From: Acidobacteriota bacterium
GTDB lineage: Archaea; Nanobdellota; Nanobdellia; Woesearchaeales; DATGWN01
Assembly (NCBI GenBank): GCA_035299465.1
Contig: DATGWN010000047.1
Span: forward strand, 716 to 64,715
Direction: 5' to 3'
DNA length: 64,000 nt
Part shown: positions 26,812-64,000 of the stretch, piece after piece
Layout: each line of letters opens with the position of its first letter
Position numbering within the stretch: position 1 is the first letter of the stretch
Program-made: the position numbers and the translations under genes
Notes under the pieces: model-generated
What the model was told of the DNA's origin: nothing
The model's input: the letters and a program-made list of their open reading frames with translations, nothing else
Database searches by the model: none

Positions 26812-26814
26812 AGT

Positions 26815-28449
26815 TTAGCCTATTTTCTTGAGCAGTTCGCTTGGATTGTCGTAGTATTCTGCCATGACATGGCTGACGCCATCGATTGTATTGATGTTAT
26901 TCTTGACAAGATACGCAAGTACGCGCTCTTTTTCTTTGAGTTGCGCTTTGATCTGTGCGGCAGTCATGCCTGAGAACGTCTGTAATGTTTTTAGAAGTAC
27001 AATTGGCTCGGCCACTTTTTTGAGCTTGTCGACTGAAGGATCGTATCTGAAGAGTACGTGCGCTTCGCCGTCTTCGAGGATTTCCGCGATTTCAAATGTT
27101 CGTCGAAGTCCAGTTCGTCTGTTACGGTATTGGATGACGGCCAAGGAAAGCGCAGGGATCATTGTCTTTGGAATGTTGATTGGCGGATTCGTCAGACGTG
27201 TGACTGTTTCTGCCGCAGTGTTTGCGTGAATAGTCGCGTAGACTGAGTGACCTGTGTGAATGGCTTCGAAAAGAACTTCTGCTTCGGCAGGTCTTCTGAT
27301 TTCACCGACGAGGATTCTATCCGGACGCATACGTAGCGAGTTTTGCAAGAGCATGAGCATCGTTACGCCGCCACGACCTTCTGCGTTAGGCAATCGAGTG
27401 AGCATCGGAATCCAGTGCAAGAATTTTGGCAACTTGATTTCTCTGGTATCTTCGATTGAGATGATGCGCTGACTTGGCGGGAAGAAATTTGACATGATGT
27501 TTAGCATACTTGTCTTACCTGACGCAGTACCACCAGCGATAAGCATCGATAATTCGTATTGGATTGCGTGCCAAATGAGTGCTGCTGCCTCGAAACTGAG
27601 CGTGTTATGTTTGAGAAAATCAGCAATTGTCCAAGGCTGTGCCGAGAACTTACGGATAGTGATCGTATTACCTTCGTTTGAAATCGGCATGAGTGTTGCG
27701 TTGACACGGTCACCGACGTTGATGGAGACGTCTAGCAATGGTTCGAGGATACTGATCTGTCGACCAACTTTACGTCCGATGGTGGTCGCAAAATAGCGGA
27801 TCTGCTCTTCAGTTTCCAATTTGATGTTGGTTTTCAGCAAGCCGTGTCGTCGGTGATAGACCCAAATCGGCATGTGCGAACCGTTGATTGCGATTTCTTC
27901 TAAGCCTTGGTCACTCATGAGGACTTCGACTTCTCCTAAGCCAATACTTCGCAAGAGAACGTAGGATACGAAGAATTTTATGTGCTCAGCTTCTGCTGTC
28001 GGAAAGTATTTTTTGACGAGGACTTCGATCGTGTCTTTGAAGACGCCATGTACGTCTTCTTGTTTTTTTGTCATATCCTTGAGCTCGATATTTCCCAAGT
28101 TGACTGTTTTTACTAATTGCTGACGGATATTTTCCAAGATGAGAAGCGTGTGTTCACCAATGCTTGGGACTGAAACGTCATAAAGTGGGACATATTCGCC
28201 TTTTTGTCTGAAGATCTTGATTTGCAGCGGGATGTCACGACAGAGTACTTCGTATGAATCAATCATATCGATACTTTTCTGTCCTTTTGCGTCGCCTAGT
28301 GATGATGAGAAGTCGACGGTCTCCTGCGAAGTCTTTTCCTTCTTATTGAGATTCGTCTTTATCGCACGAGCCTGTTCCTTTTCAGAAACTGACTGGATTG
28401 TTTGAATGGCTTTGGATGGCTGATCTTTACTTTCTCTTTTTTGCCCCAT
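26815..28449 (-). CDS. type IV pilus/archaellum assembly ATPase (FlaI/TadA/VirB11 secretion ATPase family)
   Basis: Walker A 'GGTASGKTS', 'ISIEDTRE' Asp box, 'GEIRRPAEAEVLFEAIHTGHSVYATIHAN' His box. Confidence 0.85.
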   Translation of the reverse strand: MGQKRESKDQPSKAIQTIQSVSEKEQARAIKTNLNKKEKTSQETVDFSSSLGDAKGQKSIDMIDSYEVLCRDIPLQIKIFRQKGEYVPLYDVSVPSIGEHTLLILENIRQQLVKTVNLGNIELKDMTKKQEDVHGVFKDTIEVLVKKYFPTAEAEHIKFFVSYVLLRSIGLGEVEVLMSDQGLEEIAINGSHMPIWVYHRRHGLLKTNIKLETEEQIRYFATTIGRKVGRQISILEPLLDVSINVGDRVNATLMPISNEGNTITIRKFSAQPWTIADFLKHNTLSFEAAALIWHAIQYELSMLIAGGTASGKTSMLNIMSNFFPPSQRIISIEDTREIKLPKFLHWIPMLTRLPNAEGRGGVTMLMLLQNSLRMRPDRILVGEIRRPAEAEVLFEAIHTGHSVYATIHANTAAETVTRLTNPPINIPKTMIPALSLAVIQYRNRRTGLRRTFEIAEILEDGEAHVLFRYDPSVDKLKKVAEPIVLLKTLQTFSGMTAAQIKAQLKEKERVLAYLVKNNINTIDGVSHVMAEYYDNPSELLKKIG

Positions 28450-29870: not shown

Positions 29871-30872
29871 TCAACCAACGAAGCCCGTCAACTGGTATAA
29901 CGCAATATGCCGCACAGAACCAGAACCGTTGGTGCGATTGTCTAATCTGAATGTCGGCGTCATAATGGTGAAGCCATACGACGTCGGATTTTGAGATGAG
30001 AAATAGATATAGTCTACGCTCGATTTTGTCGCGTCAATGGGCATAAGGAATGCCAATGCAGTCTTATCCACCAGGCTTTCAATACCTGTGCCGTCGTTGG
30101 ATGCGGAAAAGTTACCTTGCAAGCGCATCAAATAATTTGGCGCGTCGTCAAACTGCACATACAATCCATCTTGTATATGCGCATTGAGGTTGGCAGGGTT
30201 ATTGCCGGACACGAAATTGCCAAGATATGGCGATTGATTGATACTGGTGACATATTGGTTTGCTGTTCCGATGATGTAAATCGGATCGGAGAAACCTTCA
30301 ATCGATACTTTACTTATTCGCTGCACTGATCGGTTCCACTGAGATTTCGTTGTTGCGTCGACAAACAATAAGTTGACGTCAATCTCGAAATCCACGTTCC
30401 ACGGGTCAGTCTGTGAGATAGTGACGTCTTGCACTTCGTAGCTGAAATCTACACCAAGTGTTTGCGCCTTTTGGTCGATGCGTTGCAGCCAGTCTGTGAA
30501 AGTGTTATTCACCAGTATTGATGATGATGTGCCGTTGAGCGTTCCGTTGAGAAACAGTTCTTTTGCGTTTGCATTGACAGATTCAAGATAAACACCCTTA
30601 TCTTCGACGGTCTGAATCATCGCGACCAACGTTCGAAAACCGACCGTATATGCCGCGATCGACGCATCTGTCTCTACGTTATCGACGAATTGATTTATCG
30701 AAGAAAGACGTGTGGAGAGCGACAATGAAACGCGATTATCCGATACTTGCGACAAAGACAGCGCGTATGTCAGCAAAAGACTGAGAATGAAAATAGCCGA
30801 TGCCGTGAAGAAAACACCTTTTTTGGTTATTTTCAGTCCCATGCTCGTACCTCGACGACGATTGGGCCCCAT
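29871..30872 (-). CDS. pilin-like surface protein (class III signal peptide)
   Basis: 'KITKKGVFFTASAIFILSLLLTYALS' N-terminus. Many N-x-S/T sequons. Confidence 0.65.
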   Translation of the reverse strand: MGPNRRRGTSMGLKITKKGVFFTASAIFILSLLLTYALSLSQVSDNRVSLSLSTRLSSINQFVDNVETDASIAAYTVGFRTLVAMIQTVEDKGVYLESVNANAKELFLNGTLNGTSSSILVNNTFTDWLQRIDQKAQTLGVDFSYEVQDVTISQTDPWNVDFEIDVNLLFVDATTKSQWNRSVQRISKVSIEGFSDPIYIIGTANQYVTSINQSPYLGNFVSGNNPANLNAHIQDGLYVQFDDAPNYLMRLQGNFSASNDGTGIESLVDKTALAFLMPIDATKSSVDYIYFSSQNPTSYGFTIMTPTFRLDNRTNGSGSVRHIALYQLTGFVG

Positions 30873-32785
30873 AATGATGGAACATCGGTGATAATATTGC
30901 CTGTCACCAAGAATCCGTTTGCTTGGATGTATCCACCCATGACGGCTTGTAGGCGTGCGAGTGCATCAGCATCCGCTTCGGCTTGAGTGGCGAATACCGC
31001 GCCATAACCGACGTATGACGGGACGAAGAATCTTCGTTCAATCTGTGAGATGTTGAGGATTTGATATGTCGTCTCCTTCACTCGCACGTAATTATTTATG
31101 GCGCTGCTTTTTTGGAAGTAGTCGCTGTCTATGAAAATGCTGGAAGGTACTGCGCGCTGCGATGGTGAACTAAAATGCAATTGACTTGGTGGGTTGTAGA
31201 TGTCAGCCCACACGGATATTTTATCCGAGTCTTTTTCGACGAGGTGGAAGTATGTATCGCCTACTTGCGTGATCGATGCGGGATAATTGAAATATCGGAT
31301 ACTGTCAACTTCGTTAGAACCATTTATTTTCTCAACAGCTGCAATCTCGATCTCACCATACGGGATTATGTTATTGATACTAAGCGTATAGTTCACTTCG
31401 ATATATGATGATGTACTGTAATTGTTTTTTATGTCACTAAAAATAGTAGGATTGCCGTTACCCCAGACGTGGTCGCCGTATGAATTTAGGTAGACCGCCA
31501 TTATGTTCGTGCCATTCTTCAAATATGGCGAGAGGTTGGTGTTTGAGAATTTGTACGTCGCTGTGGCAGACGGCGAACCGTTGACTAAAAGCGGTGTGTC
31601 GCTGTTGAGGAAAAACATGACGTCAGTCGCAGATGGATCTTTCATCGTCCCGTCCCAGCCGACATAGGATGCACACGGATCATTGAGTCTGGCACCGTTA
31701 TAGAGTACACGACATCGTGCGCCTGAGATATAATCGCGAACGCTGCTTGTTGCAATTTGTGCGTAGACACTCAAATTTTGTGCGTCTTTTGGAATGACGA
31801 ATGGCATCGTTGCCCAGACGCCGGCACCGTCGTTACCAATTTCACGAGAGCGGATATTATCAAAGTAGTATCGTCGTGAAAACTGCGTTTGCGTAAATGA
31901 GATCGGTACTTCGCTGGTGTATTTTATGAACAAACCTGTGCCTGGCTGCAAGTGCGCATTATATCCATTATGCTCAAACTCAATGTATAGTTTATTTGTA
32001 CCATTTACGAAACAGCTAGTCGAAACGTTTTTTTCACCGACGTTTCCTGTCACGTCCAGGAAATACCATGTGAAATCATCGCGACGGAATTGGCATAGGC
32101 CGTCATTGAAATTCATAATCATGTCGTTTTGCTGTGTTCCTGAGTTGAGGGATACAATGAATTTTGCTTCAAGTAGCGTTAGATTCGTGAGATTGAAATA
32201 TTTTGTAACGTCGTAGAATCCTTCGTCCCATCCTGCGCCCGATGGTGAGAGTGTCACTACATATGTACTGTTGCTGCGGACCTTGGTCGCACGCGCATTT
32301 GCGATGAAACCGCGCGTCGGCTTATTTTTCTCGACGCCAGAAACGATTCTCCATGCGACGGATTGGCTTGCAATCGGAGGATTCGTTCTCGTATAGATTG
32401 ATTCGTTCTCGATCCAAATGCCAAATGACGAATAATCTGGAATCGTCTGATTGAGGAATGCGACGATGAATTCATTGGCGAGCACATCGTCACCTTGCGC
32501 CCAGAACTGGCCCATTTGGGAAATGATGTTTTGACTCAGGTCTGTTATCGAGCCGTTCGCATTCGCGGCGACGACCCACGGATTTCCTTGGTTGTATAAA
32601 TCCGAAACGTGGACGGTTTCTAACACGTGCATTATATCTTTAGAGAGGAAGAATGATTTTGGCTGACCTGCACTTTGTGTTGGCGTGATGACAAGAAGCG
32701 AAATAGCTGCGAGCAGAATTGTCGCACAGATAATTGCATCTATGATAAAGAAGACTGCTTTTTTGTTTGATGGCTTTAGTCCCAT
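30833..32785 (-). CDS. giant (650 aa) pilin-like/adhesin-like surface protein (class III signal peptide)
   Basis: 'KKAVFFIIDAIICATILLAAISLLVI' N-terminus. N/S/T-rich, numerous N-glycosylation sequons. Confidence 0.7.
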   Translation of the reverse strand: MGLKPSNKKAVFFIIDAIICATILLAAISLLVITPTQSAGQPKSFFLSKDIMHVLETVHVSDLYNQGNPWVVAANANGSITDLSQNIISQMGQFWAQGDDVLANEFIVAFLNQTIPDYSSFGIWIENESIYTRTNPPIASQSVAWRIVSGVEKNKPTRGFIANARATKVRSNSTYVVTLSPSGAGWDEGFYDVTKYFNLTNLTLLEAKFIVSLNSGTQQNDMIMNFNDGLCQFRRDDFTWYFLDVTGNVGEKNVSTSCFVNGTNKLYIEFEHNGYNAHLQPGTGLFIKYTSEVPISFTQTQFSRRYYFDNIRSREIGNDGAGVWATMPFVIPKDAQNLSVYAQIATSSVRDYISGARCRVLYNGARLNDPCASYVGWDGTMKDPSATDVMFFLNSDTPLLVNGSPSATATYKFSNTNLSPYLKNGTNIMAVYLNSYGDHVWGNGNPTIFSDIKNNYSTSSYIEVNYTLSINNIIPYGEIEIAAVEKINGSNEVDSIRYFNYPASITQVGDTYFHLVEKDSDKISVWADIYNPPSQLHFSSPSQRAVPSSIFIDSDYFQKSSAINNYVRVKETTYQILNISQIERRFFVPSYVGYGAVFATQAEADADALARLQAVMGGYIQANGFLVTGNIITDVPSLWGPIVVEVRAWD

Positions 32786-36624: not shown

Positions 36625-38277
36625 CTAGGCATGTGCCAGCGCGGTCTTTTCAAGCAATGGTTTTTGGGCCAACAATTGTCTATATAGATCTAAACGACTC
36701 TTTATTCTTTGGATTGGTTCGCTTTTTGCCAATTCCGTACCGTCGACATCTTCTTCTATCTGCTTTTCGACTTCAATCGTCGCACGAATCCACGTGTCAC
36801 GTTCGGCTATCGTGAGCGCTGCTTTTTCGGCAAGCATTTCTCTGATGCGTAGTTCGCATCTTTCGAATGAACCGAGTGCTGAATGCATATGCTGCTCAAT
36901 TTGTTTATTGTATTTTCTTGCGAGTCTTGTAAGGCAAGAAGTCATGAAATCGCCGAGTCTGTGCGCGTACGAACCGTTGCTATGCAGGAGTCTTGCTTGC
37001 ATTTGCGTTTCAAAGTCGTGTTTCTCGCGGATTTCGTCGCTGATAGCCCACAGTAGTTCCCGTGTTGCGTCTTCGTCAAAACTGTCCGTTGTTATGTAAC
37101 CTGCTGTATGCATTTGATTTGTGCCAATTGTTGCAGCGACATAACCTCGCTCGTATATGCGGCGTTTGATTGCTGCGTCTAGCGGTTCAGTTGTGAAAGT
37201 GATCTTTGCGCCGTTTGCGGTTGTATTTGCCAATTCTTCTTTGAGACTGTTTTCACAGATGATGTCGCACGTCTTGTCCAGTTGGACGTTGCCTAGAACG
37301 GATGTGTCTTCAGCTCGGATCGCGTACACTTGAGAGATGACGTTCTCCATGGGAACCAGAATCGCGATTTTCTTTTTCGACCAATTGCCCCACATATGAG
37401 ATGCGACTGGACCGTTGACTGCAAAATGTACCGTCTCTCGTCCTAAAAAGTCGGTACCTTCACTAGTCTGTGATGTTGTTAGTATGATGCCGTTTTTCGG
37501 GAAATAATCTGTTTTATGGACAAGGATGAATTGTTTTGGGTTCGTTTCGCTGCGCAAGCGTCGGACTTCCTGCAAATACTTGAGCATTTTCTCCTGCTTG
37601 TTTGTAAGCGTGACATTGATCGCCTTATAGTCGGCTTCGATCGCCTGCAAATCATGCGGATGGAAGACTTCGATGATTTTGATATTGGCGTCGCAGAATT
37701 TCTTAACTAGCAGTGCGCGTCTATGTTGCTCAGGCATTATTTCATTGAGTGCCTTCTCTTCTTTGTCAAGGATTTCTTTGTACTGCGCAATCCATGAAGA
37801 AACTTGTGGGCCTATGCGAGTCACAGGGACGAAAAGCGCCAATAACTTTTTTTCGTCTTCGAGCGCGCGCATGAGCTGGAAATATTTGACAAACGCCGCG
37901 TTAAACTCATCTTTGTACGTGTTGATAAGTTCTGTAGTCAGATTCTGCTGCGATTTTGTGAGTTTTGCAAAGCTTGCGAATGAGAATAAGAATGCATGTT
38001 TGTCTTGCACACTAAATACTGTTTCTTGTTTCTGCAAAAATTCATGCAGTTTTTTTACGACTTTATTGAGTTCAAGGGCGTTAAGCTCGTTTTTGCTCTT
38101 TTTTGTAAAGGAGAACAATGACTTTGGTTCTGGTTTGAATGCTTCTGTCACAAGTTCAGTCATCGAAGCGAGATAGGTACGTCTGGTTTGGACTGAATGG
38201 AACTTCCAGTTAAACGCGATTCCCAATTCTACAAAGGCCTTTTCAACAGCTTTGTAATCTGCCGCTACATACTGCAT
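36625..38277 (-). CDS. hypothetical protein (550 aa)
   Basis: Long clean ORF, helical/charged, no motif recognised. Confidence 0.65.
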   Translation of the reverse strand: MQYVAADYKAVEKAFVELGIAFNWKFHSVQTRRTYLASMTELVTEAFKPEPKSLFSFTKKSKNELNALELNKVVKKLHEFLQKQETVFSVQDKHAFLFSFASFAKLTKSQQNLTTELINTYKDEFNAAFVKYFQLMRALEDEKKLLALFVPVTRIGPQVSSWIAQYKEILDKEEKALNEIMPEQHRRALLVKKFCDANIKIIEVFHPHDLQAIEADYKAINVTLTNKQEKMLKYLQEVRRLRSETNPKQFILVHKTDYFPKNGIILTTSQTSEGTDFLGRETVHFAVNGPVASHMWGNWSKKKIAILVPMENVISQVYAIRAEDTSVLGNVQLDKTCDIICENSLKEELANTTANGAKITFTTEPLDAAIKRRIYERGYVAATIGTNQMHTAGYITTDSFDEDATRELLWAISDEIREKHDFETQMQARLLHSNGSYAHRLGDFMTSCLTRLARKYNKQIEQHMHSALGSFERCELRIREMLAEKAALTIAERDTWIRATIEVEKQIEEDVDGTELAKSEPIQRIKSRLDLYRQLLAQKPLLEKTALAHA

Positions 38278-44605: not shown

Positions 44606-45781
44606 TTAATCGCGCGCGAACACACGGTGGAAGATTTCCATCTTTTCTTGACTTGCAGGCGATAGCGCGATATGCGTTCGTTTATGTACTGGCGTTCTCG
44701 AACGAACACATTCAAGTAAGTGTAATGTTTCGGCAATACGCTGAGCGTCACTTTTTATTACGATTTCCTGAGTGCCTGCTCCAGTCTTTGGAAGCTTAGC
44801 AAGATATCCATCTGGACGATTGAGACCCAACTGTGCACTATATACGTCAGACGTGGATCCTTCAAACAACGCTTTGAGGAAATATTCTGGCAGTGCGCCG
44901 TCGTCAATGGCACGGATGGAATCAAAAATGCCGTGTGGATCGTTACTTGTAATCCATTTCTGTTTAGGTCTCGTACTGATGCGAGTAGGCGCTCGAGTTT
45001 TTGCCAACATATCATACTTGTGGATAACTTGTTTATTCAGTGTGCTTGCAACGCATTCTGTTTGTGAGCCATATGCGTCTAAAAAGGCACAAAGTTTTTC
45101 TTTGGCCTCATTGATTATGTACGCTTCAAGGTCTGTGAGAAATACAACTGGCACGTCGTGATGCGATGCCAAGATTGCATCTGTCTGAAATTGCGATAGT
45201 GTTGCGTCTACTGATTCAACGCCTCGAAGCATCTTTAGATACATGTTTCTCATATTGCCAGCACTCTGTGTTACTATTCCAGTCAGAGAGTGGCAGGATG
45301 CTTGCACATTTAACGCATGGCTTGTAGTCTTGCTTGCATTCGCAAACAATTCTCGTTTATAGTCATAATAATTATTTACTTGTTCACATAGCAAAATTGG
45401 GCCGTCAATAGACCTCAAACCAAATCGAGGAACATCGAATTCTGGAAACATATATGCTCTTGCGTCCACTTTATTCGCAAAATGCATTTGATCATCAAAT
45501 TGCTCGGGATGAAATGTCGGAAGAACATGAGTGTATGTCCCATTAATGAGTGAAATGTGAGGAGTGTTGGTAAGGATTTCGTACGCTTTAGGATTGACTA
45601 CGTGTAACATATCTAAATCAATTCCTTGCGTGCTATATGCCAGAGGAATTTTATTTTGCGTGATGATATTCAAAATAGTATCTAAACTTGAACCTGGTTT
45701 TACAGCTTCTAGATACTTCTGGGTACTTACTTCAGAATGAGCTTCATTGGCGTACAAGACGAAAACGGATGTCGGTTTCAT
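44606..45781 (-). CDS. hypothetical protein, possibly glycoside hydrolase family 57-like
   Basis: 'GTYTHVLPTF' resembles the GH57 'G.YTHPILP' motif. Weak. Confidence 0.4.
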   Translation of the reverse strand: MKPTSVFVLYANEAHSEVSTQKYLEAVKPGSSLDTILNIITQNKIPLAYSTQGIDLDMLHVVNPKAYEILTNTPHISLINGTYTHVLPTFHPEQFDDQMHFANKVDARAYMFPEFDVPRFGLRSIDGPILLCEQVNNYYDYKRELFANASKTTSHALNVQASCHSLTGIVTQSAGNMRNMYLKMLRGVESVDATLSQFQTDAILASHHDVPVVFLTDLEAYIINEAKEKLCAFLDAYGSQTECVASTLNKQVIHKYDMLAKTRAPTRISTRPKQKWITSNDPHGIFDSIRAIDDGALPEYFLKALFEGSTSDVYSAQLGLNRPDGYLAKLPKTGAGTQEIVIKSDAQRIAETLHLLECVRSRTPVHKRTHIALSPASQEKMEIFHRVFARD

Positions 45782-50850: not shown

Positions 50851-53046
50851 ATGGCAACAGACAAAATGGTTGATCGCGTTCAGCGCATCATCAAAAATCC
50901 AGATCAGATTAGAAATATCTGTACGTCAGCCCACATCCACCACGGTAAAACGGCTTTCACAGATAACCTCCTTGCAGCATCAGGTCAAATGGCGGCTAAA
51001 TTCGCCGGTGACCTAGAGCAAGGTATGGCGACGTGGCAACACGCAGACGAACAAGAACGACTTATGACAGTTGACGCGGCAAACGTATCAATGGTCCACG
51101 AGTACAACGGCAAAGAATTCCTCATCAACTTGATTGATACGCCAGGTCACGTAGACTTCGGTGGTAACGTCACTCGAGCGATGCGAGCAATCGACGGTAC
51201 AATCGTTCTCGTTTGTGCAGTCGAAGGTTTCATGCCGCAGACTGAAACGGTCTTGCGACAAGCTCTCAAGGAAAGAGTCAAGCCTATCTTGTTCATCAAC
51301 AAAGTAGACCGACTCATCAAAGAAGTCAAGATGACGCCAGAGTCCATGCAAGCACGCTTCATGGAAATCTTCAAGGAATTCAACCAGATGATCGACAAGA
51401 TCGCTGAACCAGAATTCGCAGCACAATGGAAGGTCGACATCCTCAACGGTTCAGTCGCGTTCGGTTCCGCACGTGATAACTGGGCAATGAGTGTCCCATT
51501 CATGAAGAAGAAGGGCGTTTCATTCAAGGATGTCCTTAACATCTACGAACTCGACGAACAAGCTCGAAAAGACTGGTGCTGGAAAAATGCTCCTCTTTTT
51601 GAAGTCATCCTAGACATGGTAGTTGGTCACTTGCCAACTCCACAACAAGCGCAGCGCTACAGAATCCCTAAGATCTGGCACGGCGATTTGGAATCAGACT
51701 TCGGTAAGGATTTGATCACGTGTAACACTGCAGGGAAACCAGCATTCTGTATCACGCGTATCGTCATCGACCCACGATCAGGTAAAGAAATCTCGGCAGG
51801 ACGTTTGTTCTCAGGTAAACTTGCAGATGGTATGGAAGTCTATCTGAACCTTGCAAAGAAGCGACAGCGAATCCACCAAGTCCTCGTCTATAACGGTATC
51901 AAACCAGAACCGGTTGGCGAAATCACTGGCGGGAACGTACTTGCGATCACTGGTGTCGTTGGTGAAGCGGGAGAAACAATCACGCTCAATCCAGAAACTC
52001 CATTCGAAGAACTCAAACACATCTTCGATCCGGTCATCACGAAAGCGATCAAGGTCAAAAACCACCTCGACTTGCCAAAACTCGTCGAAGTATTGCAAAA
52101 AGTTGCAAAAGAAGACCCATCAGTCAAAGTCCAGATGGACCAGAAGACTGGTGAAAACTTGCTTTCAGGTATGGGTGAGTTGCACTTAGAAATCATCGAA
52201 GGACGTATCAAGACTGAAAAAGGTGTCGAAGTTGAAACTTCAAACCCAATCATCATCTATCGTGAATCGATCACTAAGGCATCGCCAGAATACGAAGGTA
52301 AGTCGCCGAACAAGCACAACAAGTTCTACTTCAGAGTCGAACCAGTTGAGCCATCGGTTGTCGAAGCAATGTCATTTGGTAAGTTGACAAACCAACACGT
52401 CAAAGGTAAGGACTTGGCTTTACGTCAAATATTCCTCGACGCTGGTTACGAAACGAAGCAAGCTGACGCTGTCAAGGCAATCTACAACGGTAACTTGTTC
52501 ATCGACGAAACTCGTGGTCAAATCTACATGATGGAAGTCATTGAGATGTTGCTCGAAACGTTCGAAGACGTCATGAACAATGGTCCAGTCGCTCGTGAGC
52601 CATGCTTCGGTGTCAAAGTCATCATGACTGATATGAAGCTACACGAAGACGCGATCCACCGTGGTCCGGCACAAGTCTATCCTGCGGTCCGTGAAGGTAT
52701 CCGTGGTGCAATGGTCAATGCAGGTCCAACGTTGTTTGAGCCACAGCAAATCTTATTGATTGAAGTCCCTAACGAATACATGGGAGAAATCAGTAAGCTT
52801 GTCTCATCCAAGCGCGGTCAATTGCTCGATATGACTCAAAGCGCAGATCAAGCGAACATCAAGGCGAAGATGCCGGTCATGGAACTCCTTGGCTGGTCTA
52901 GCGACTTGCGTTCTGCAACATCAGGTCGAGGTATCTCCTCACTTGTCGATCAAAGCTTTGAACGATTGCCTAACGAAATCCAAGGCAAGGTCAGACAGCA
53001 GATCATGCAGCGAAAAGGCTTGAACGAAAGCCAAGTCGGTATCTAA
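50851..53046 (+). CDS. fusA: translation elongation factor 2 (aEF-2)
   Basis: 'IRNICTSAHIHHGKT', 'NLIDTPGHVDF', 'NKVDRL', diphthamide-region 'DAIHRGPAQV'. Followed by an oligo-T terminator. Confidence 0.9.
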   Translation: MATDKMVDRVQRIIKNPDQIRNICTSAHIHHGKTAFTDNLLAASGQMAAKFAGDLEQGMATWQHADEQERLMTVDAANVSMVHEYNGKEFLINLIDTPGHVDFGGNVTRAMRAIDGTIVLVCAVEGFMPQTETVLRQALKERVKPILFINKVDRLIKEVKMTPESMQARFMEIFKEFNQMIDKIAEPEFAAQWKVDILNGSVAFGSARDNWAMSVPFMKKKGVSFKDVLNIYELDEQARKDWCWKNAPLFEVILDMVVGHLPTPQQAQRYRIPKIWHGDLESDFGKDLITCNTAGKPAFCITRIVIDPRSGKEISAGRLFSGKLADGMEVYLNLAKKRQRIHQVLVYNGIKPEPVGEITGGNVLAITGVVGEAGETITLNPETPFEELKHIFDPVITKAIKVKNHLDLPKLVEVLQKVAKEDPSVKVQMDQKTGENLLSGMGELHLEIIEGRIKTEKGVEVETSNPIIIYRESITKASPEYEGKSPNKHNKFYFRVEPVEPSVVEAMSFGKLTNQHVKGKDLALRQIFLDAGYETKQADAVKAIYNGNLFIDETRGQIYMMEVIEMLLETFEDVMNNGPVAREPCFGVKVIMTDMKLHEDAIHRGPAQVYPAVREGIRGAMVNAGPTLFEPQQILLIEVPNEYMGEISKLVSSKRGQLLDMTQSADQANIKAKMPVMELLGWSSDLRSATSGRGISSLVDQSFERLPNEIQGKVRQQIMQRKGLNESQVGI

Positions 53047-55772: not shown

Positions 55773-57065
55773 ATGGCACGAGCAAAAGAACACATCAACC
55801 TGATTTTTATCGGGCACGTTGACCACGGTAAGTCAACATCAGTCGGTCGACTCATGTTCGACGCAGGCTTCATCGACGAAGTTACAATGCGAAAGTTGAA
55901 AGAAAAAGCACAATCACTTGGTAAAGCTGGTTTCGAATTCGCCTATGTTATGGACGAATTGAAAGAAGAACAAGAACGTGGTGTCACTATCGACCTCGCT
56001 CACAAGAAGTTCGAAACTAAGAAGTACGACTACACTATCATCGACGCACCAGGTCACAAAGACTTCATCAAAAACATGATCACTGGCGCATCACAAGCAG
56101 ACGCAGCAGTTCTAGTCTGTGCAGCACCAGAAGGTGTCTCACCACAAACTCGAGAACACGCATTCTTGTCAAAGACTTTCGGTGTCAAACACCTTATCGT
56201 CGCAATCAACAAGATGGACATGGTCAAGTACGACCAAGCTAAGTTCAATGCAGTCAAAGCTGATGTTGAAACTGTCCTCAAGAACGCAGGCTGGAGACCA
56301 GACCAAATCTTGGCTTTCGTCCCTACTGCAGCATTCGTTGGTGACAACGTTTTCAAGAAGTCAACTAACATGCCTTGGTACACTGGAAAGAGCATCTTCG
56401 AATTGATGGATGATATCCCAGCACCAACTAAGCCAACAGACAAACCATTACGACTCCCAATCCAAGACGTCTATACTATTACAGGTATCGGAGCAGTCCC
56501 AGTTGGTAAAGTTGAAACTGGTATCATGAAGGTTAACGACAAAGTTGTTGCAGTCCCAGGCCGTGAAGGTAAGGGTGTTCTTGGCGATGTCAAGACAATC
56601 GAAATGCATCACTCACAAGTCCAATCAGCAGAACCTGGTGACAACATCGGTTTCTCAATCAGAGGCTTTGGTGCTAAAGACGTAGCTAAGGGCGATGTCA
56701 TCGGTCACCAAGACAACTGGCCAACGGTAGCTGAAGAGTTCACAGCACGAATCATCGTCTTGAACCACCCATCCGTTATCACGATCGGTTACACTCCAGT
56801 ATTCCACATCCACACTGCACAAGTTGCTTGCCAAGTTATTGCAATCGAAAAGAAGCTTAACCCAGCAACTGGTGAAGTTCTTGCGGAAAATCCAGACTTT
56901 ATCAAGAATGGAGACGCTGCAGTCGTACGACTCAAGCCAACAAGACCACTCGTCATCGAAAAGTCAGCAGACAACCCGCAAATGTCACGATTCGCAATCC
57001 GCGATTCAGGTGCAACAGTTGCAGCTGGTATGTGTATTGACATTAAGCCTAAGAAGCTCAATTAA
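55773..57065 (+). CDS. tuf: translation elongation factor 1-alpha (aEF-1alpha)
   Basis: 'GHVDHGKST', 'DAPGH', 'NKMD'. AGGAGG RBS 8 nt upstream. Confidence 0.95.
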
Positions 57066-59772: not shown

Positions 59773-60003
59773 ATGGTCCAAGCAATGATAGAAATCCCAA
59801 ACGAAACGAATCAGATTCTTAATATCGTGAAAGCGCGATTCAATCTGAAAACGAAGAGCGAGGCTATCGCAAAAATGGCGTCTGAATACGGAAAGACGTT
59901 GCTTGAACCTGAACTTCGTCCGGAATATATTAAGAAACTTAAAAAAATTAGTAAGGAAAAGACTATTCCTATGAGTGAACTTAGAAAACTCATAGAGAAA
60001 TGA
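59773..60003 (+). CDS. putative type II antitoxin
   Basis: 76 aa, immediately upstream (2-nt gap) of the RelE-like gene. Confidence 0.5.
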   Translation: MVQAMIEIPNETNQILNIVKARFNLKTKSEAIAKMASEYGKTLLEPELRPEYIKKLKKISKEKTIPMSELRKLIEK

Positions 60004-60004
60004 T

Positions 60005-60280
60005 ATGTACGCAGTTGTGTTTCGTGATAGTGTGTCAAAGATTCTTAAAAAACTCTATAAGAGAGATAGAGCGATTTATTTTCAAATAATGTCTAAGGTC
60101 GAAGAGATTTCTCTATCTCCCGAACATTACAAGAACTTGCGATATGGAATGAAAGACTACAAACGTGTGCACATAGGTCACTACGTGCTGCTGTTTTCCA
60201 TAGAAGAAAATACCGTAATAATTGAAGATTTTGATCATCATGACGTAATCTATGATCAAAGCACTGGACAACCGCACTGA
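60005..60280 (+). CDS. RelE/ParE-family type II toxin
   Basis: 'KNLRYGMKDYKRVHIGHYVLLFSIEENTVIIEDFDHHDVIY' is typical of RelE/ParE. Confidence 0.65.
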   Translation: MYAVVFRDSVSKILKKLYKRDRAIYFQIMSKVEEISLSPEHYKNLRYGMKDYKRVHIGHYVLLFSIEENTVIIEDFDHHDVIYDQSTGQPH

Positions 60281-60797
60281 CTACCTATATAAACTAAAAC
60301 ATTTAGGCAATGCTTATATGAGCGAATTCAAGAAATCCATAGACACACCGTTATCAGAGCTGACGTTGAGACGGTATGAGAAGCCTTCTTTTACTACACG
60401 TCGTGAGCTTGTGGCAAAGACGTGCTTATCTTTGGGTCTATTACAGCCAGGTGATTCACGGGATGTCATTGTCGATATTTTCTATGTATTATTAGTTGCG
60501 CGTTCGTCACGCAAGGAATTGTCTTCATATGAAGTACGTGAGGAAGTCGTCAAATTGCGACGCGAGAATAATCTTGCGTTACTTGGCATTGCCGATTCGA
60601 ATGTCCGCCGCCAAATTAAGAGATTGCGCGACATGTTCTTGGTTGAGAAAGTCAAGAACAATTATCGCGTGACTGAATTTGAGCAGTTGTCTGCTATTTT
60701 TAATTCTAAGATAGAGCAGTATTATTTTCCTGCGATTTTATCTCGCGTGAAGGAATATGTTTCTACTTGCGATACGGAGTTTAATAAGTTGAATTAG
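60252..60797 (+). CDS. hypothetical protein (possible wHTH)
   Basis: 181-aa ORF. Start may be the internal 'MSEFKK' (60318). Confidence 0.45.
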   Translation: MIKALDNRTDYLYKLKHLGNAYMSEFKKSIDTPLSELTLRRYEKPSFTTRRELVAKTCLSLGLLQPGDSRDVIVDIFYVLLVARSSRKELSSYEVREEVVKLRRENNLALLGIADSNVRRQIKRLRDMFLVEKVKNNYRVTEFEQLSAIFNSKIEQYYFPAILSRVKEYVSTCDTEFNKLN

Positions 60798-60888: not shown

Positions 60889-63477
60889 TTAAATACGCAG
60901 CACATACTCAACCAAATCATCAACAACAGAACTGTTTCCGCGATATAATTCAACCAGCAATGAATTGACAATCGGCGTTCGCTTTGGAAACAACCACTCC
61001 ACTACACTTGAAACTGTTCCAGTCGCTTCACCCAAAGCAGCATCGCCTAAGTCTAATTCGCCTTCACGACTATTCGCAGTCAATCCAAAGAATTTCTCAT
61101 ACATTTTGTCATAGTCATACGTATAGGAGAATTGTTCTCCCTTACGCACACGCTGCGAGCGCGCCTGCACAATCCGACCAGAATTTGCTCGAGCTGAGAA
61201 CGCCGTGTAATCTCGTTTTGACTCGAACGAATATTGCGTATCAGGTAATTCAGAATCCAGCGCCAGTCCATCCGCAAGCACGCGGGCACGGTCTGCGACG
61301 TAGACAAGTGCGCCACGCACGTCGTTTGCCAAGACAATTTTCTCAAGTAGCGCTTTGTAGCATTGTTTTTCGAATTCGCAACGTTCGCCCTTGCGAGATT
61401 TGGGGTCGGCAATACCAGGCGAAAGCAGTTGCCCGTCAAGATTGAAGCCAAAGCGGCCGGTGTCGCCGCTGAGTAAACTTCCAAAGCCAAGCGTGGTTGC
61501 GCAGGCATGAACCGGCTCGCCTAATGCGGTGCACAGACGACTCTCCAAGAACGGATCAAGAAGGCTTTTTGTCATGTATATCGGAGCTTTTTTGTTTAGC
61601 ACCGTTGCGGCATCTAGTGTTTGTGCGACGATTTCAAGCGCCGTTTCTACTCTCCCCTGATAGTCGTCAAGCCAATCGGTCGAACTATCCAGACCAAATA
61701 ATTTACAGAAGCGTTCATTGGTTATTGTTGGTGCAAACACCGCGTAATACGGGAATTCTGCAAGAGATTCAAGTTCGCGGGAAATTCTCGCTTGGGTTTT
61801 TGCAGGACTGCGATTTCGTAAATCAAACAGCGCGGCAACGTCAGGATCTTTGCGTAATAAAGGTTCGAATATCGACGAAATGAAATGGATCTCTGTCCAG
61901 TACGCATTTGAAATCCCTTTCGTGGACTTGAGCGTTGCATATTCTTCGAATCGCTTTTGCATATCGATGTAGGACGAAAAGTTCTTGAAAATGAGGGGAT
62001 CCGTCGAATCATCGAACGGATACGATGCCACGTCGCGGCCGTAGCGTTTATGGAATTCAAAGAAACGGCGCATCCAATATTCACAATGGCGTTGTTTTTT
62101 TGATACTGTGTCAAGTCGGCCAGGAATGGAGCGATTCAGCCGAGCCATGACAATATGTTCATCTATGATCGCTTCGTAGATGTCTTCGGTCTTAAGTATG
62201 TCTTGGCCGCCGTAGCGAGCAAGCAATTCCAAGGCGGCATCGTCTCCTTGTTGTGCGCGTTTCCCCACGACGAATAGTTCATCGTGCGTCATGGGTTTAC
62301 GTTCTGTGGCGCCAGTATAATATTGATGCTGCGTATCAAGTTTATTATTTGGCAATGGGAGAAAATGCTGTGCGTATCCCATGGCGTCTATCGTCAAGCG
62401 ACCAGGCACTTCTTTTCGCACAACGAAACCGTTTTGGATCTGGCTGCGATGCATGACTGCTTCGCCGTGGGTGCCTATATTGAATCGGCCTTGTAATTGT
62501 TTTGGCTTTGCGTAGTCGTACTTGTATATATTTTGCCCCATCACAACGAGCGGCTGTAGTTCGAGGAATTTTTGTTCAGTCGCAGTCAAAATGTCTGACT
62601 GGGAATCAAAAGAAATGGAGGTGAACGGTACGTTGCGATCTTTTCCTGGGTGCGGTACGAGCACGGATGAAGGAAACTTATACTCGCCGACAAAATGACC
62701 TTGTGTGGAATTTCCGACGATGTGTAATGTCTGTTTTTCGCCTTTGAGTAGATCCATGATGCGGTCGATTTCAAGCAACATCTCTTTTCTATTGAGGAAT
62801 CCGACTTTCGCTGCGGCTTTTCTTGTCGGATCCAAAGCGGCAACGGTTGCGAAATGTTTCTCTAGTTCAGGCAATTCAAGGTCGCGAACCGATTGTGGTG
62901 CGGCGACTTTCTTCCAATTGTCTGCTTCAGAATCATACGAAACGTGCATCGAGTTTTTAATGTATGAAAACGGAACCACGTCGGGTGTGACTGTAACAGC
63001 GCCATCATTGATCTTGATTATGCCAAATGGAAAATTCAACGCGGCTTCGGCTTGCATCTGATACAGGTTGTAGTGATTGAATTGCAGCGTGCCAGTGAAA
63101 ATGCGTTTTGCCAGTGTCTCTGCATATCGAGGCATGATGACGTGTCCGACTCGCTCAGAGGATTCCACTTCCTGCACGAATATCTCTTTGTTTATGGAAT
63201 CCAAAAAAGGGTCGACTAGCTTTGACTCGCTGCGTTTGAACGACAATTCTCTGCGGATGCTGTCTTTGAGCGTCTGCATTTGTTCGGATACGATAAAATA
63301 TTTTGAAATGAAGAACGGCACGTGCAGTTTGACATTGTGCGAGAATTGGGTCGGATTATGCAGACGTTTGTTTGCGTCATCAATTTCCCAAGCGACGCCA
63401 CGAACCCTACTTTGGAGCATTCCCTCTAGGCTTCTGTCTGCCATGACCCACGTGACTGCGTGCATATCATGAGTCAT
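60889..63477 (-). CDS. large hypothetical protein (862 aa, ORFan-like)
   Basis: Uninterrupted 2.6-kb ORF with balanced composition. No P-loop, polymerase or other motif recognised. Confidence 0.7.
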   Translation of the reverse strand: MTHDMHAVTWVMADRSLEGMLQSRVRGVAWEIDDANKRLHNPTQFSHNVKLHVPFFISKYFIVSEQMQTLKDSIRRELSFKRSESKLVDPFLDSINKEIFVQEVESSERVGHVIMPRYAETLAKRIFTGTLQFNHYNLYQMQAEAALNFPFGIIKINDGAVTVTPDVVPFSYIKNSMHVSYDSEADNWKKVAAPQSVRDLELPELEKHFATVAALDPTRKAAAKVGFLNRKEMLLEIDRIMDLLKGEKQTLHIVGNSTQGHFVGEYKFPSSVLVPHPGKDRNVPFTSISFDSQSDILTATEQKFLELQPLVVMGQNIYKYDYAKPKQLQGRFNIGTHGEAVMHRSQIQNGFVVRKEVPGRLTIDAMGYAQHFLPLPNNKLDTQHQYYTGATERKPMTHDELFVVGKRAQQGDDAALELLARYGGQDILKTEDIYEAIIDEHIVMARLNRSIPGRLDTVSKKQRHCEYWMRRFFEFHKRYGRDVASYPFDDSTDPLIFKNFSSYIDMQKRFEEYATLKSTKGISNAYWTEIHFISSIFEPLLRKDPDVAALFDLRNRSPAKTQARISRELESLAEFPYYAVFAPTITNERFCKLFGLDSSTDWLDDYQGRVETALEIVAQTLDAATVLNKKAPIYMTKSLLDPFLESRLCTALGEPVHACATTLGFGSLLSGDTGRFGFNLDGQLLSPGIADPKSRKGERCEFEKQCYKALLEKIVLANDVRGALVYVADRARVLADGLALDSELPDTQYSFESKRDYTAFSARANSGRIVQARSQRVRKGEQFSYTYDYDKMYEKFFGLTANSREGELDLGDAALGEATGTVSSVVEWLFPKRTPIVNSLLVELYRGNSSVVDDLVEYVLRI

Positions 63478-63539
63478 ATTGTCACTATTTATAAGGAGTG
63501 AGATTCAGATTTATAAATAAAAGTTTCATCGCATTCCTC

Positions 63540-64000
63540 ATGGGGGAAGTCGACACAGTTTTCTACATCAAGCAAGTCTATACTAATCTTGCAATCAACA
63601 AACCATGGCTTGCTCACAGAGATATCGACGACCCAAAAAAGTTTCTCAAAGCGTTGCGACGCAATTCATACTTTCACGGAAAAAGACGAAAACCGATTTT
63701 AGAGGATATTGTACACACTGCGTTTATGGATGCGGACAATACAAAAAAATCCGGGCGAATGAGCCAATATCAACTACACGAGCAAGCGATACTGGAATAT
63801 ATCAAAAATACAACCGACCTTACAATTCCCATTTTTACTGAAGGCACTACGGTCACCGGTTTTGGCAGAGCGGAGAAAGAGGGCATCGATCCATACAGTA
63901 ACTCACATTTATTCACGACACTTTTGATCGCGCACGCATACTATCATCACGATATCTCGTTTCTGAAAAAGCTTCAATTCTGGTCGGTACAGCCTGTGAC
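63540..64000 (+). CDS. hypothetical protein, 3' end truncated by window edge (not in ORF track because no stop)
   Basis: Frame open from a TAA at 63492 to the window end, first ATG at 63540. Divergent from the 862-aa gene across an AT-rich 62-nt spacer containing 'TTTATAAATAAAAG'. Confidence 0.45.
   Translation, partial: MGEVDTVFYIKQVYTNLAINKPWLAHRDIDDPKKFLKALRRNSYFHGKRRKPILEDIVHTAFMDADNTKKSGRMSQYQLHEQAILEYIKNTTDLTIPIFTEGTTVTGFGRAEKEGIDPYSNSHLFTTLLIAHAYYHHDISFLKKLQFWSVQPV

Follow-up and report, generated by a model that had tools for sequence, protein, structure and literature searches.

Archaeal family-B DNA polymerases (PolBs) of the B3 type (Pfu, KOD, Tgo and Pab PolB) are the nearest solved relatives of the protein described here, with which they have in common the full-length fold, the exonuclease motifs Exo I, Exo II and Exo III and the thumb-base segment 'KxY…RRDW'. 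Poxvirus F12 and the helicase-fused pPolBs are inactivated in both their polymerase and their exonuclease parts. The Pol epsilon C-terminal module is described in the same way (PMC2669801), and this module, F12 and the pPolBs of polinton-like viruses are all PolB folds exapted after the polymerase catalytic residues were lost (PMC2669801, PMC4304020, PMC5499653). PolB2/Dpo2 likewise comprise archaeal PolB paralogues that have diverged and carry substitutions in their catalytic motifs; they are encoded in a small conserved gene neighbourhood, and a role in repair is assumed for them (PMC4104785, PMC7544198). PolB2 lacks Exo III and a conserved Exo I but retains one Asp of motif C (PMC7544198), and its gene is linked to arCOG07300 and to an inactivated RadA (PMC4104785). 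Predicted to be inactive from motif loss, this protein was later shown to be a working translesion polymerase (PMC7544198, PMC8764526). By analogy of the proposed working principle, DnaQ/epsilon, TREX and Cas2-DnaQ would also be comparable, being 3'-5' DEDD exonucleases that lack polymerase activity of their own, although these are small single domains whereas here the exonuclease lies inside a complete PolB scaffold of ~860 aa. Some DEDD exonucleases are tethered to the sliding clamp.

The gene analysed here lies in a window (the whole stretch of DNA under analysis) of 64,000 nucleotides, and the identification of its product as a strongly diverged member of the archaeal family-B DNA polymerase homologues is well supported. 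The locus has the following arrangement:

60889..63477, minus strand: gene of the diverged PolB homologue, with 862 aa if read from Met1 and, more probably, 858 aa if read from Met5
63478..63539, no strand: AT-rich divergent promoter spacer with two TATA boxes, defined by sequence and G+C
63540..64000, plus strand: N-terminal 153 codons of the conserved partner gene, whose ORF runs off the window edge

The open frame of 862 codons is far beyond chance, given its length, the 73 homologous cluster representatives and a structure model with a pLDDT of 92. It is uninterrupted over 60889..63477 of the minus strand, encoding 862 aa when counted from the first ATG, and its amino-acid composition is balanced, in agreement with a sequence-only reading of this DNA that had judged the ORF likely to be real on its lack of internal stops and its composition. 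A 100% identical protein in the public record (P0001) begins at Met5 and has 858 aa. The Met5 codon is found at 63465 and a TATA-like box, TTTATAA at 63488-63494, is placed 22 nt upstream of it; Met5 is therefore more likely to be the true start, with a protein of 858 rather than 862 aa, in which case the spacer would be 74 nt long. The annotation is everywhere 'hypothetical protein', with no Pfam domains on record. The source contig is archaeal chromosomal, yet its public record is labelled Acidobacteriota; it is probably mis-binned, archaeal DNA within a bacterial MAG, and our finding flags it.

The spacer at 63478-63539 comprises 62 nt with 29% G+C, as compared with ~44% for the window. Besides the TTTATAA box it contains TTTATAAATAAAAG, the sequence quoted in the sequence-only reading (ATTTATAAAT at 63509-63518), a box located 22 nt upstream of the partner ATG (63540). 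The central palindromic TATA box ATTTATAAATCT recurs in the equivalent spacers of at least seven other loci, being found in spacers of 52-57 nt in L001, L003, L007, L008, L013 and L015 and in a 94-nt spacer in L004. Scanning for promoters and terminators was uninformative, as it relied on a sigma-70 model and the host is archaeal. The AT-rich 62-nt spacer with a TATA-like sequence, first proposed from the letters alone, is borne out by its low G+C, its two boxes and the recurrence of the central one elsewhere.

The PolB-like gene and a conserved partner of about 700-950 aa are divergently transcribed from this shared TATA-box promoter region. In the window and in each of the 16 distinct related loci with upstream sequence, the partner lies next to the gene in divergent orientation, so that the divergent pairing with a second unknown gene, already noticed in the sequence-only reading, is genuine and kept wherever upstream sequence is available. 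The pairwise identities of the two proteins correlate with r = 0.94 (10 loci). This conserved pairing is the most informative feature of the locus. None of the other neighbours seen in the window, namely the wHTH (60252-60797), ParE, DUF2683, pirin and DUF892, is kept beside the pair in other loci; the ParE/DUF2683 toxin-antitoxin pair adjoins the gene in the window. Elsewhere the flanking genes are housekeeping and variable (EF-1alpha/S10, IMPDH, RNase J, PCNA), with a PCNA gene 1.7-5.7 kb downstream in two loci and an N6/N4 methyltransferase ~4 kb downstream in L018. Neither Cas1, integrase nor a RadA-like gene occurs among the Pfam-annotated neighbours in six loci, no cas1, cas2 or CRISPR was seen near the pair, and no polymerase gene is linked in any locus examined. 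PADLOC, run on the query and three of its relatives as well as on the 153-aa partner fragment of the window and five full-length partners, gave no matches, and a scan of IMG/VR returned no relatives. The variable housekeeping flanks and the absence of IMG/VR relatives and of PADLOC matches are best explained by a pair that is cellular and not mobile.

Of the 73 relatives (cluster representatives) that an exhaustive HMMER search recovered at E <= 1e-3, 28 reach E <= 1e-30, and the gene is thus not the ORFan that it had been taken for. Full-length matches among these relatives reach at most 31% identity, while 64 aligned sequences share about 16-28% identity with the query. The phyletic distribution, which the sequence-only reading had proposed to survey, is narrow: all named members come from Woesearchaeota/Nanoarchaeia (DPANN archaea), as do most of the titled loci. 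A word-indexed homologue search retrieved the protein itself as its sole match, and the query alone gave nothing above threshold against Pfam, NCBIfam, PDB sequences or PADLOC. The Pfam family DNA_pol_B_exo1 is detected faintly on the query (E = 0.011, 15.6 bits against a cut-off of 23) and matches 7 of 25 relatives, at best with 9.4e-8; the PHROG 'DNA polymerase exonuclease subunit' matches at E = 1.6e-3.

The AlphaFold (AF2) model of the protein (pLDDT 92.3, pTM 0.92) displays the full PolB architecture, consisting of N-terminal domain, exonuclease, palm, fingers and thumb. Foldseek, likewise suggested in the sequence-only reading, found 248 PDB matches at E <= 1e-3, the best 50 of which are all PolBs aligned over ~875 columns, the top ones having E ~1e-17, TM up to 0.53-0.60 and 10-13% identity. 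Sequence profiles of the family lead to the same group: profile A2 matches PDB PolBs (Pfu/KOD) with E = 3e-15 in two collinear stretches, and profile A3, built from the shorter half of the family, reaches E = 4.8e-37, with profile positions 143-423 aligned to Pfu 134-398, as compared with only 3e-14 for Pol II and 9e-17 for Pol delta. Comparison with Pfu by hhalign gave a probability of 97.4%; the Pfu reference sequence agrees with the PDB alignment except at a few residues. Descent from bacterial Pol II or archaeal B7, hinted at by the QLxLF tails of some members, was considered and rejected on the values for B3-type PolBs (4.8e-37) and E. coli Pol II (3e-14). The sequence-only reading had named confident homology to a housekeeping enzyme family as what would refute it, and a full-length PolB fold with profile E-values of 3e-15 and 4.8e-37 is such a homology.

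All three PolB exonuclease signatures, Exo I (DxE), Exo II (Nx3[FY]D) and Exo III (Yx3D), are present in the protein:

62920..62940, minus strand: Exo I motif S-Y-D182-S-E184-A-D, aa 180-186; D182 and E184 in 64/64; aligns with the Pfu Exo I region (profile A3)
62512..62538, minus strand: Exo II motif G-Q-N316-I-Y-K-Y320-D321-Y, aa 314-322; aligns with Pfu 'YNGDSFDFPY'
62200..62214, minus strand: Exo III motif Y422-G-G-Q-D426, aa 422-426; Y422 and D426 in 64/64; aligns with Pfu 'YSMEDA'

The DEDDy set D182, E184, D321, Y422 and D426 is found in 64 of 64 sequences at each position, and since these five residues are the only invariant ones, selection on catalysis is indicated. Within Exo II, D321 is accompanied by F or Y at position 320 in all 64 sequences and by N316 in 57. 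The mean frequency of the top residue is 0.36 in the exonuclease domain and 0.31 in the polymerase half. As compared with Pfu, the branch of the query has a helical insertion of ~65 aa between Exo I and Exo II, so that D182 and D321 are 139 aa apart against 74 aa in the Pfu numbering. The protein has retained a strictly conserved DEDDy 3'-5' exonuclease centre and is predicted from its sequence to be an active exonuclease. The description of the protein as motif-free accordingly needs to be split: the three exonuclease motifs are there, with invariant catalytic residues, while motifs A, B and C, sought in vain before, are truly degenerate.

In the polymerase half three segments could be placed on the PolB fold:

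61855..61917, minus strand: degenerate motif-A-equivalent, G521-ISNAYWTEI-H531-F-ISSIFEPLL, aa 521-541, a strand then a helix without the catalytic Asp (structure-guided mapping)
61570..61602, minus strand: degenerate motif-C-equivalent beta hairpin V-L-N628-K-K630-A-P-I-Y-M-T, aa 626-636, with N-x-x in place of DTD
61363..61488, minus strand: conserved palm/thumb-base segment, aa 664-705, G-x-G-x-x-L-S670-G-x-x-G-R-F … G688-I-A-D691 … K-G697-E-R-C-x-F-E703-K

Motifs A, B and C occur in none of the 73 relatives, there being no D..SLYP anywhere and no DTD at the motif C site. The motif A region is modelled as a strand (521-530) followed by a helix (532-536); position 531 is T in 24 sequences, F in 17, S in 5, H in 4 and N in 4, position 532 is Pro in 53 of 64, and there is no conserved D or E. 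The fingers helix equivalent to motif B carries K562…R564…E570…P576 instead of KxxxNSxYG. For motif C, hhalign puts Pfu Y-I-D541-T-D543 on v-I-N-x-x of the family (N628-K-K630), a hairpin with strands 626-630 and 633-636 in the model, where N628 is present in 59 of 64 sequences and position 630 is S, N, G, H or K. Motifs A and B were assigned to individual residues by way of the predicted structure and the path of the full-length alignment; the isolated palm/fingers segment has no sequence similarity to Pfu, so sequence alone cannot map motifs A, B and C. The palm/thumb-base segment is the second collinear HMM match, to Pfu/KOD residues 593-682, and corresponds to the PolB 'KxY … RGLEIVRRDW' DNA-binding region, with which PolBs contact the primer-template; S670 is found in 58, G697 in 59 and E703 in 56 of 64 sequences, and the best-conserved acids of the polymerase half, E703 (88%) and D691 (77%), both belong to it. 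Throughout the family, other residues have taken the place of the catalytic Asp of motif A, of the DTD of motif C and of motif B, which binds dNTPs. From sequence and model the proteins are predicted to be polymerase-dead; PolB2/Dpo2, likewise judged inactive by motif loss, proved active.

The partner was completed through its relatives. As the sequence-only reading had seen, the gene starting at 63540 is cut by the window edge; completing it with downstream sequence failed for this copy, whose public record (P0078, 217 aa, 'partial') ends with the contig too, so that the nuclease-domain region falls beyond both window and contig end, and succeeded elsewhere, with full-length relatives of 690-946 aa. 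The C-terminal third of these is predicted to be a Cas4/RecB-like PD-(D/E)xK domain with four conserved Cys. The catalytic residues appear in the order D639, D662-x-K664 and Q679-x3-Y683 in 18 of 19 partners and are placed by the model on two strands (640-646 and 655-663) and a helix (674-694), H587 is invariant in 18-19 of the 19 sequences, and of the cysteines C534 (19/19) precedes this core whereas C783-x2-C786-x7-C794 (18/19) follow it. Among Pfam families PF12705 alone recurs (in 3 of 12 partners, below threshold), the structure model is of moderate quality (pLDDT 72) with marginal Foldseek E-values, none <= 1e-3, the partner profile gave chance-level matches only against PDB sequences, and a single weak 'exonuclease' match was obtained against PHROGs. 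These observations support, with moderate scores, a predicted C-terminal nuclease domain of the Cas4/AddB PD-(D/E)xK type in the full-length partners, presumably with an Fe-S cluster. The N-terminal 500 aa have no P-loop and no sequence-detectable relatives. A UDG-like identity of this half was put aside and kept as a lead only, since hhalign against E. coli Ung covered 9 residues at 0.2% probability; the searchable literature held nothing relevant on AF0587/2Q07.

We favour, with fair confidence, an exapted, polymerase-dead and exonuclease-active PolB that, jointly with a second nuclease, processes DNA ends or takes part in repair. The PolB-like protein would no longer synthesise DNA; its polymerase scaffold would grip a duplex end or primer-template junction and feed the 3' end to the exonuclease site, acting as if locked in editing mode. 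Together with its partner it may constitute a machine of two nucleases that treats ends, nicks or flaps of DNA during repair associated with replication, with the PolB-like subunit handling 3' ends and the Cas4-like subunit 5' or single-stranded DNA; the gene arrangement suggests that both proteins could form a physical complex. A C-terminal Q-x-x-L-F tail, present in 13 of 60 full-length members and absent from the window protein, matches the QL[S/D]LF consensus (PMC3716654), and in this part of the family the sliding clamp may hold the PolB-like subunit by its Q-L-x-L-F tail. A more specific version is possible but doubtful, namely an undescribed, lineage-specific repair or quality-control machine of Woesearchaeota, in which an end-holding 3'-5' exonuclease PolB would act with a partner bearing a UDG-like base-recognition module and a Cas4-type Fe-S nuclease, recruited by PCNA in part of the lineage.

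The complete fold, including fingers and thumb, the well-conserved polymerase half (0.31 against 0.36 for the exonuclease) and the conserved D691 and E703 of the C-terminal half could instead belong to a still-active unconventional polymerase, translesion or specialised, with a rearranged active site, in the manner of PolB2/Dpo2 or the primer-independent PolBs, and PolBs predicted to be inactive have been found active before (PMC7544198, PMC8764526). However, PolB2 retains one motif C Asp, whereas here no carboxylate is conserved at the motif A or C equivalent, motif B is missing in 73 of 73 relatives, and D691 and E703, only 77-88% conserved, map to the thumb base (Pfu 'RGLEIVRRDW…AKE') and not to the catalytic palm, which makes such an activity distinctly unlikely. 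An intact exonuclease site beside a lost polymerase site would also suit a DnaQ-like subunit that acts in trans on the proofreading or fidelity of another replicase, either PolD or a PolB that is active, in agreement with the clamp-binding-like tails of part of the family and with PCNA near two loci, the partner then being unrelated in role or merely co-regulated. This leaves the strict divergent pairing with a predicted nuclease-domain protein unexplained, and no polymerase gene is linked in any locus. Archaeal PolD and PolB, moreover, possess proofreading activities of their own, and we hold this role to be improbable. Kept fold and vanished polymerase motifs would equally fit a non-catalytic structural scaffold derived from PolB, for which the Pol epsilon C-terminal half and poxvirus F12 are precedents (PMC2669801, PMC4304020); in these the exonuclease site is degraded too, while here the DEDDy residues are the sole fully invariant positions in 64 sequences, rendering a scaffold very improbable.

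A different function would be antiviral or anti-plasmid defence, the two nucleases degrading invading DNA in DPANN archaea, which mostly lack CRISPR-Cas. Solo Cas4-family nucleases are over-represented in DPANN and have been proposed for uncharacterised defence pathways (PMC5704561), and the narrow phyletic range of the two-nuclease gene pair, the adjoining ParE/DUF2683 toxin-antitoxin in the window and the methyltransferase near the pair in L018 would be consistent with this. We nevertheless regard defence as unlikely, given that no PADLOC model matches either protein, that the other loci are flanked by variable housekeeping genes and not by defence islands, the toxin-antitoxin and wHTH neighbours being not conserved, and that similar divergence and tight co-variation of both proteins are seen among the loci without patchy horizontal spread. 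As for a true ORFan with a novel fold, or a remnant of a mobile-element polymerase (casposon or virus), the word-indexed search that returned only the protein itself and the lack of a curated family above threshold on the query alone once spoke for it, but 73 relatives and a confident PolB fold refute the ORFan and novel-fold parts, and with no IMG/VR relatives and neither Cas1 nor integrase among the Pfam-annotated neighbours in six loci the probability of this alternative is close to nil.

The favoured reading, an exonuclease-keeping PolB working beside a second nuclease, sets the family apart from the systems described above. From B3-type PolBs it differs in having no motif A (DxxSLYPS), motif B (KxxxNSxYG) or motif C (DTD) and in that its gene is always paired with a putative nuclease-domain gene. 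With respect to PolB2 the degeneration is reversed, Exo I and Exo III being invariant and motif C being without Asp, and the conserved neighbour is a 700-950-aa protein with a predicted Cas4-like domain in place of arCOG07300 and the inactivated RadA; the named members here are all Woesearchaeota/Nanoarchaeia, while PolB2 occurs widely among Crenarchaeota and Euryarchaeota. Here, unlike in the Pol epsilon C-terminal module, conservation within the protein is highest at the exonuclease centre. In comparison with the Fe-S nucleases Cas4, AddB, AdnAB, Dna2 and EXO5, the predicted domain of the partner is the C-terminal third of a 700-950-aa protein whose N-terminal 500 aa lack a P-loop. To our knowledge, and in the searchable literature, the known inactivated PolB derivatives have all lost the exonuclease site: Pol alpha, Pol zeta and PolB2 have lost this site alone, the Pol epsilon C-terminal half and poxvirus F12 the polymerase site as well. 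By retaining its proofreading site under strict selection and giving up synthesis, this lineage-wide family would represent the opposite route of exaptation.

The finding annotates two families of hypothetical proteins. The PolB-like family, whose members are now listed only as such, would add a group to the archaeal PolB catalogue (B1-B10, PMC7544198), and, being invariably encoded head-to-head, this family and the partner with its probable Cas4-like domain make up a candidate module of two nucleases in DPANN archaea, whose 'solo' Cas4-family nucleases are still in search of a role (PMC5704561). The head-to-head position of a PolB relative and a probable Cas4-like nuclease gene in a DPANN lineage suggests that the exonuclease-keeping PolB and its partner are an undescribed DNA-processing pair. 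DNA repair in DPANN archaea is poorly understood, and the candidate module bears on it; if the lineage-specific repair machine outlined above were real, these reduced-genome archaea would excise damaged or mis-incorporated DNA in a new way, replacing canonical end-resection or excision.

The open reading frame at 60889-63477 on the minus strand, which the sequence-only reading had taken for an ORFan, encodes a full-length homologue of the family-B DNA polymerases (PolBs). The gene itself agrees with that reading, having 862 codons from the first ATG, zero internal stops and an ordinary, balanced amino-acid composition. The ORFan label did not survive: HMMER, run exhaustively over 1.84 billion cluster representatives, retrieved 73 relatives at E ≤ 1e-3, of which 28 reach E ≤ 1e-30; a word-indexed search matched only the protein itself. 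Most relatives are 750-1050 aa long and can be aligned along their full length (alignments A1, A2 and A3), full-length matches share at most 31% identity with the query, and the named members are all annotated 'hypothetical protein', and their records list no Pfam domain.

The query alone gave a sub-threshold match to Pfam DNA_pol_B_exo1 (aa 288-382, E = 0.011) and a match to the PHROG family 'DNA polymerase exonuclease subunit' (aa 311-437, E = 1.6e-3). Among the 25 closest sequences (the query and 24 relatives), DNA_pol_B_exo1 was matched in seven (best E = 9.4e-8) and the polymerase-domain Pfam model in none. Against the PDB, a profile of the closer relatives matched Thermococcales PolBs (E = 3e-15) along two collinear segments: one is the exonuclease domain (PolB 184-373), the other a 'KxY…RGLEIVRRDW' palm/thumb segment (PolB 593-682). 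The profile of more distant, shorter relatives matched Pfu PolB at E = 4.8e-37, with the match beginning at Exo I, as well as Pol delta (9e-17) and E. coli Pol II (3e-14). Using an approximate Pfu PolB sequence that largely agrees with the printed PDB alignment, hhalign gave 97.4% probability across Pfu 183-703. The AlphaFold model built from a 64-sequence alignment has a pLDDT of 92.3 and a pTM of 0.92, and Foldseek returned 248 PDB matches for it at E ≤ 1e-3, the best 50 of which are all family-B polymerases, over ~875 aligned columns. It is the convergence of the Pfam and PHROG hints with the profile, hhalign, AlphaFold and Foldseek results that identifies the protein as a full-length PolB homologue, and the profile scores place archaeal B3-type PolBs closest to it among solved structures. 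Between Exo I and Exo II the query has a helical insertion of ~65 aa (aa ~190-245; window ~62743-62910, minus strand). It is specific to the branch of the query; the shorter relatives (~780 aa), which are without it, have much higher scores against Pfu PolB. The insertion may constitute a partner-binding surface.

The claim that the protein has no detectable motifs holds for polymerase motifs A, B and C, none of which was found, but not for the exonuclease, where Exo I, II and III are all present. Five residues, and no others, are the same in all 64 aligned sequences (~16-28% identity to the query): D182 and E184 of Exo I, D321 of Exo II, and Y422 and D426 of Exo III. Together they form the complete DEDDy exonuclease set; N316 and an aromatic residue at 320 are also retained. 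The element expected to carry motif A is modelled as a strand (521-530) followed by a helix (532-536), with T, F, S, H or N at position 531 and Pro532 in 53 of the 64 sequences. The beta hairpin aligned by hhalign to Pfu Y-I-D-T-D has N628 in 59/64, followed by variable residues. In a regular-expression scan, none of the 73 relatives has motif A or motif B, and none carries a DTD in the right place; most of them have in common two motifs peculiar to the family, '(V/I)(I/L)N' and 'KGERxxFE'. Taken alone, the palm/fingers segment has no sequence similarity to Pfu that could be detected, so motifs A and B were mapped residue by residue with the structural model as guide. A mapping-independent conservation test gave the same answer: all acidic positions in the C-terminal 420 residues are ≤88% conserved, and the best conserved, E703 and D691, fall within the segment aligned to the PolB thumb base. 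The conservation of this thumb-base segment points to retained binding of a duplex or primer. Judging from the alignment and the model, it is highly probable that the family has an active exonuclease and has lost its polymerase activity. We hold our confidence at that level because of Dpo2, a PolB predicted to be inactive and later proved active (PMC7544198, PMC8764526).

The key context of the PolB-like gene is its divergent partner, a plus-strand reading frame that starts at 63540 and, as noted from the sequence, runs off the window. The 62-nt spacer between them (63478-63539) is indeed AT-rich (G+C 29% vs ~44% for the window), and the TATA-like element described there, ATTTATAAAT at 63509-63518, is accompanied by an additional TATA-like box, TTTATAA, at 63488-63494. 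The public record starts the PolB-like protein at Met5, giving 858 aa. The TTTATAA box precedes the Met5 codon by 22 nt, and the ATTTATAAAT box precedes the partner ATG by 22 nt; from archaeal promoter geometry we therefore think that Met5 is the real start and that both divergent mRNAs are leaderless.

In three related loci (L001, L002 and L003) the family member stands head-to-head, 55 nt apart, with a Pfam-negative gene of 772-828 aa, whose N-terminus is 30-35% identical to the 153-aa partner fragment of the window. A partner HMM revealed the partner directly upstream and divergent in every locus having upstream sequence, including those of two very distant family members (L017, E = 2e-32; L018, E = 6e-45). 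The pairing thus holds in 16 distinct loci and in the window as well, with zero exceptions, a count that leaves aside L005 and L019, cut at a contig end; a further case is suggested by the contigs of P0002 and P0077, for which one length, 6,627 bp, is on record. A single central palindromic TATA box, ATTTATAAATCT, occupies the spacer of at least seven related loci; six of these spacers measure 52-57 nt, with the box ~22-25 nt from either start codon. Pairwise identities of the PolB-like protein and of the partner correlate across 10 loci (r = 0.94), which supports co-inheritance of the pair but falls short of proving interaction, because vertically inherited genes correlate to some degree anyway. 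Beside related genes, none of the window gene's remaining neighbours is conserved.

The last third of 19 non-identical partners (P0077 numbering) contains an invariant series: C534, R-G-T-x-I-H587, H599-Y600, E618, P638-D639, D657, D662-x-K664, Y676-x2-Q679-x3-Y683 and C783-x2-C786-x7-C794. None of the 19 has a Walker A motif. This motif order is that of PD-(D/E)xK nucleases of the Cas4/AddB/Dna2 type, which bear a four-Cys Fe-S cluster. The partner model (moderate overall at pLDDT 72, good in the nuclease-like domain at 85-94) gave as best Foldseek matches Cas4 SSO0001 (probability 0.99, E = 4.5e-3), a DinG helicase (probability 0.99), AddAB, RecE and Dna2, and the sole recurrent Pfam family is PF12705 (PDDEXK_1), sub-threshold in 3 of 12 partners. 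Motifs and model make it likely, short of proof, that the C-terminal domain is Cas4-like (for this nuclease family see PMC5704561), an assignment made on full-length relatives, the window contig's own partner being truncated by the contig end after 217 codons.

A Q-x-x-L-F C-terminal end (e.g. QLSLF, QLNLF, QLDLF) is present in 13 of 60 full-length family members, among them P0035, P0037, P0039, P0040, P0020, P0043, P0046, P0055, P0003, P0006 and P0007, and not in the window protein. This tail coincides exactly with the bacterial beta-clamp-binding consensus QL[S/D]LF (PMC3716654), which Pol II carries as QLGLF, though the hosts are archaea with PCNA. A PCNA gene lies downstream of the PolB-like gene at 1.7 kb in L017 (10283-11020) and at 5.7 kb in L018 (14161-14481); in both loci RNase J lies upstream. 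Tail and nearby PCNA hint at action on clamp-loaded DNA. In the mechanism we propose, the PolB-like subunit would use the palm/thumb that it has kept to grip a DNA end or primer-template junction, and would degrade or trim the 3' strand; the Cas4-like domain of the partner would cut 5' or single-stranded DNA, and the shared promoter would ensure co-expression of the two. A role in cellular maintenance seems to us more likely than one in defence or mobility, because the genes flanking the pair are housekeeping ones that vary between loci, IMG/VR holds zero relatives of the PolB-like protein, and PADLOC gave zero matches for PolB-like proteins and partners.

The public record labels the contig 'MAG TPA … Acidobacteriota bacterium', but the content of the window is archaeal. 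Its relevant features are:

24425-28449, T2SSE/T2SSF-type pilus gene cluster
30833-32785, minus strand, Pfam-negative ORF of 650 aa, adjoining the pilus cluster
36625-38277, minus strand, Pfam-negative ORF of 550 aa
41605-42675, minus strand, second DEDD exonuclease, RNase D/WRN-like 3'-5' (DNA_pol_A_exo1 + HRDC), beside tRNA-Glu
44606-45781, minus strand, Pfam-negative ORF of 391 aa
45908-46011, plus strand, tRNA of 104 nt (Rfam, 54.7 bits)
50851-53046, aEF-2, archaeal marker
55773-57065, EF-1alpha with eEF1A-type C-terminal domain, archaeal marker
59773-60280, plus strand, DUF2683 gene (76 aa) with a ParE-family toxin gene (91 aa) directly after it
60252-60797, plus strand, 181-aa protein with weak winged-helix matches (HVO_A0261_N, Crp, ArsR, Csa3-like), convergent with the PolB-like gene

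The window also encodes a nucleoside diphosphate kinase, an archaeal-type pilus ATPase/platform pair and Woesearchaeota-specific gene families, and its EF-1alpha matches that of a Woesearchaeota locus at 672 bits. The named relatives of the PolB-like gene are all Woesearchaeota, Nanoarchaeia or Nanoarchaeota. We consider the contig to be probably a mis-binned DPANN contig inside a bacterial MAG. Scanning GTDB species representatives returned 13 related loci, eight titled Woesearchaeota or Nanobdellota and five from 'binchicken' bins titled 'uncultured Methanosarcinales'; L005, L009, L014 and L015 are among these co-assembly bins, and the label is probably a placeholder or labelling artefact. 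The 104-nt tRNA was missed by ARAGORN, which suggests that it carries an archaeal-type intron. The DUF2683 and ParE genes are probably a type II toxin-antitoxin pair; neither this pair nor the winged-helix-type gene is kept beside the PolB-like gene in other loci.

The nearest concept to this family is that of the 'inactivated' PolB derivatives, namely PolB2, the C-terminal half of Pol epsilon, F12 and the helicase-fused pPolBs. F12 and the helicase-fused pPolBs have lost the exonuclease site too, or the exonuclease site only. PolB2 and the Pol epsilon half have lost the exonuclease site, alone or together with the polymerase site, according to PMC7544198. In the PolB-like family the pattern is reversed, with the exonuclease site kept and the polymerase site lost. 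That paper sets out six new archaeal PolB groups, among them B7 and B9 in Woesearchaeota, described as polymerases; its available passages mention neither a PolB group reduced to its exonuclease nor a partner of the Cas4 type, and full-text searches of open-access papers brought no description of such a family either. The window gene is real, its identity is explained, and it is a member of a new PolB group. What makes this group interesting is its conserved partner, with which we propose that it may share a joint role.
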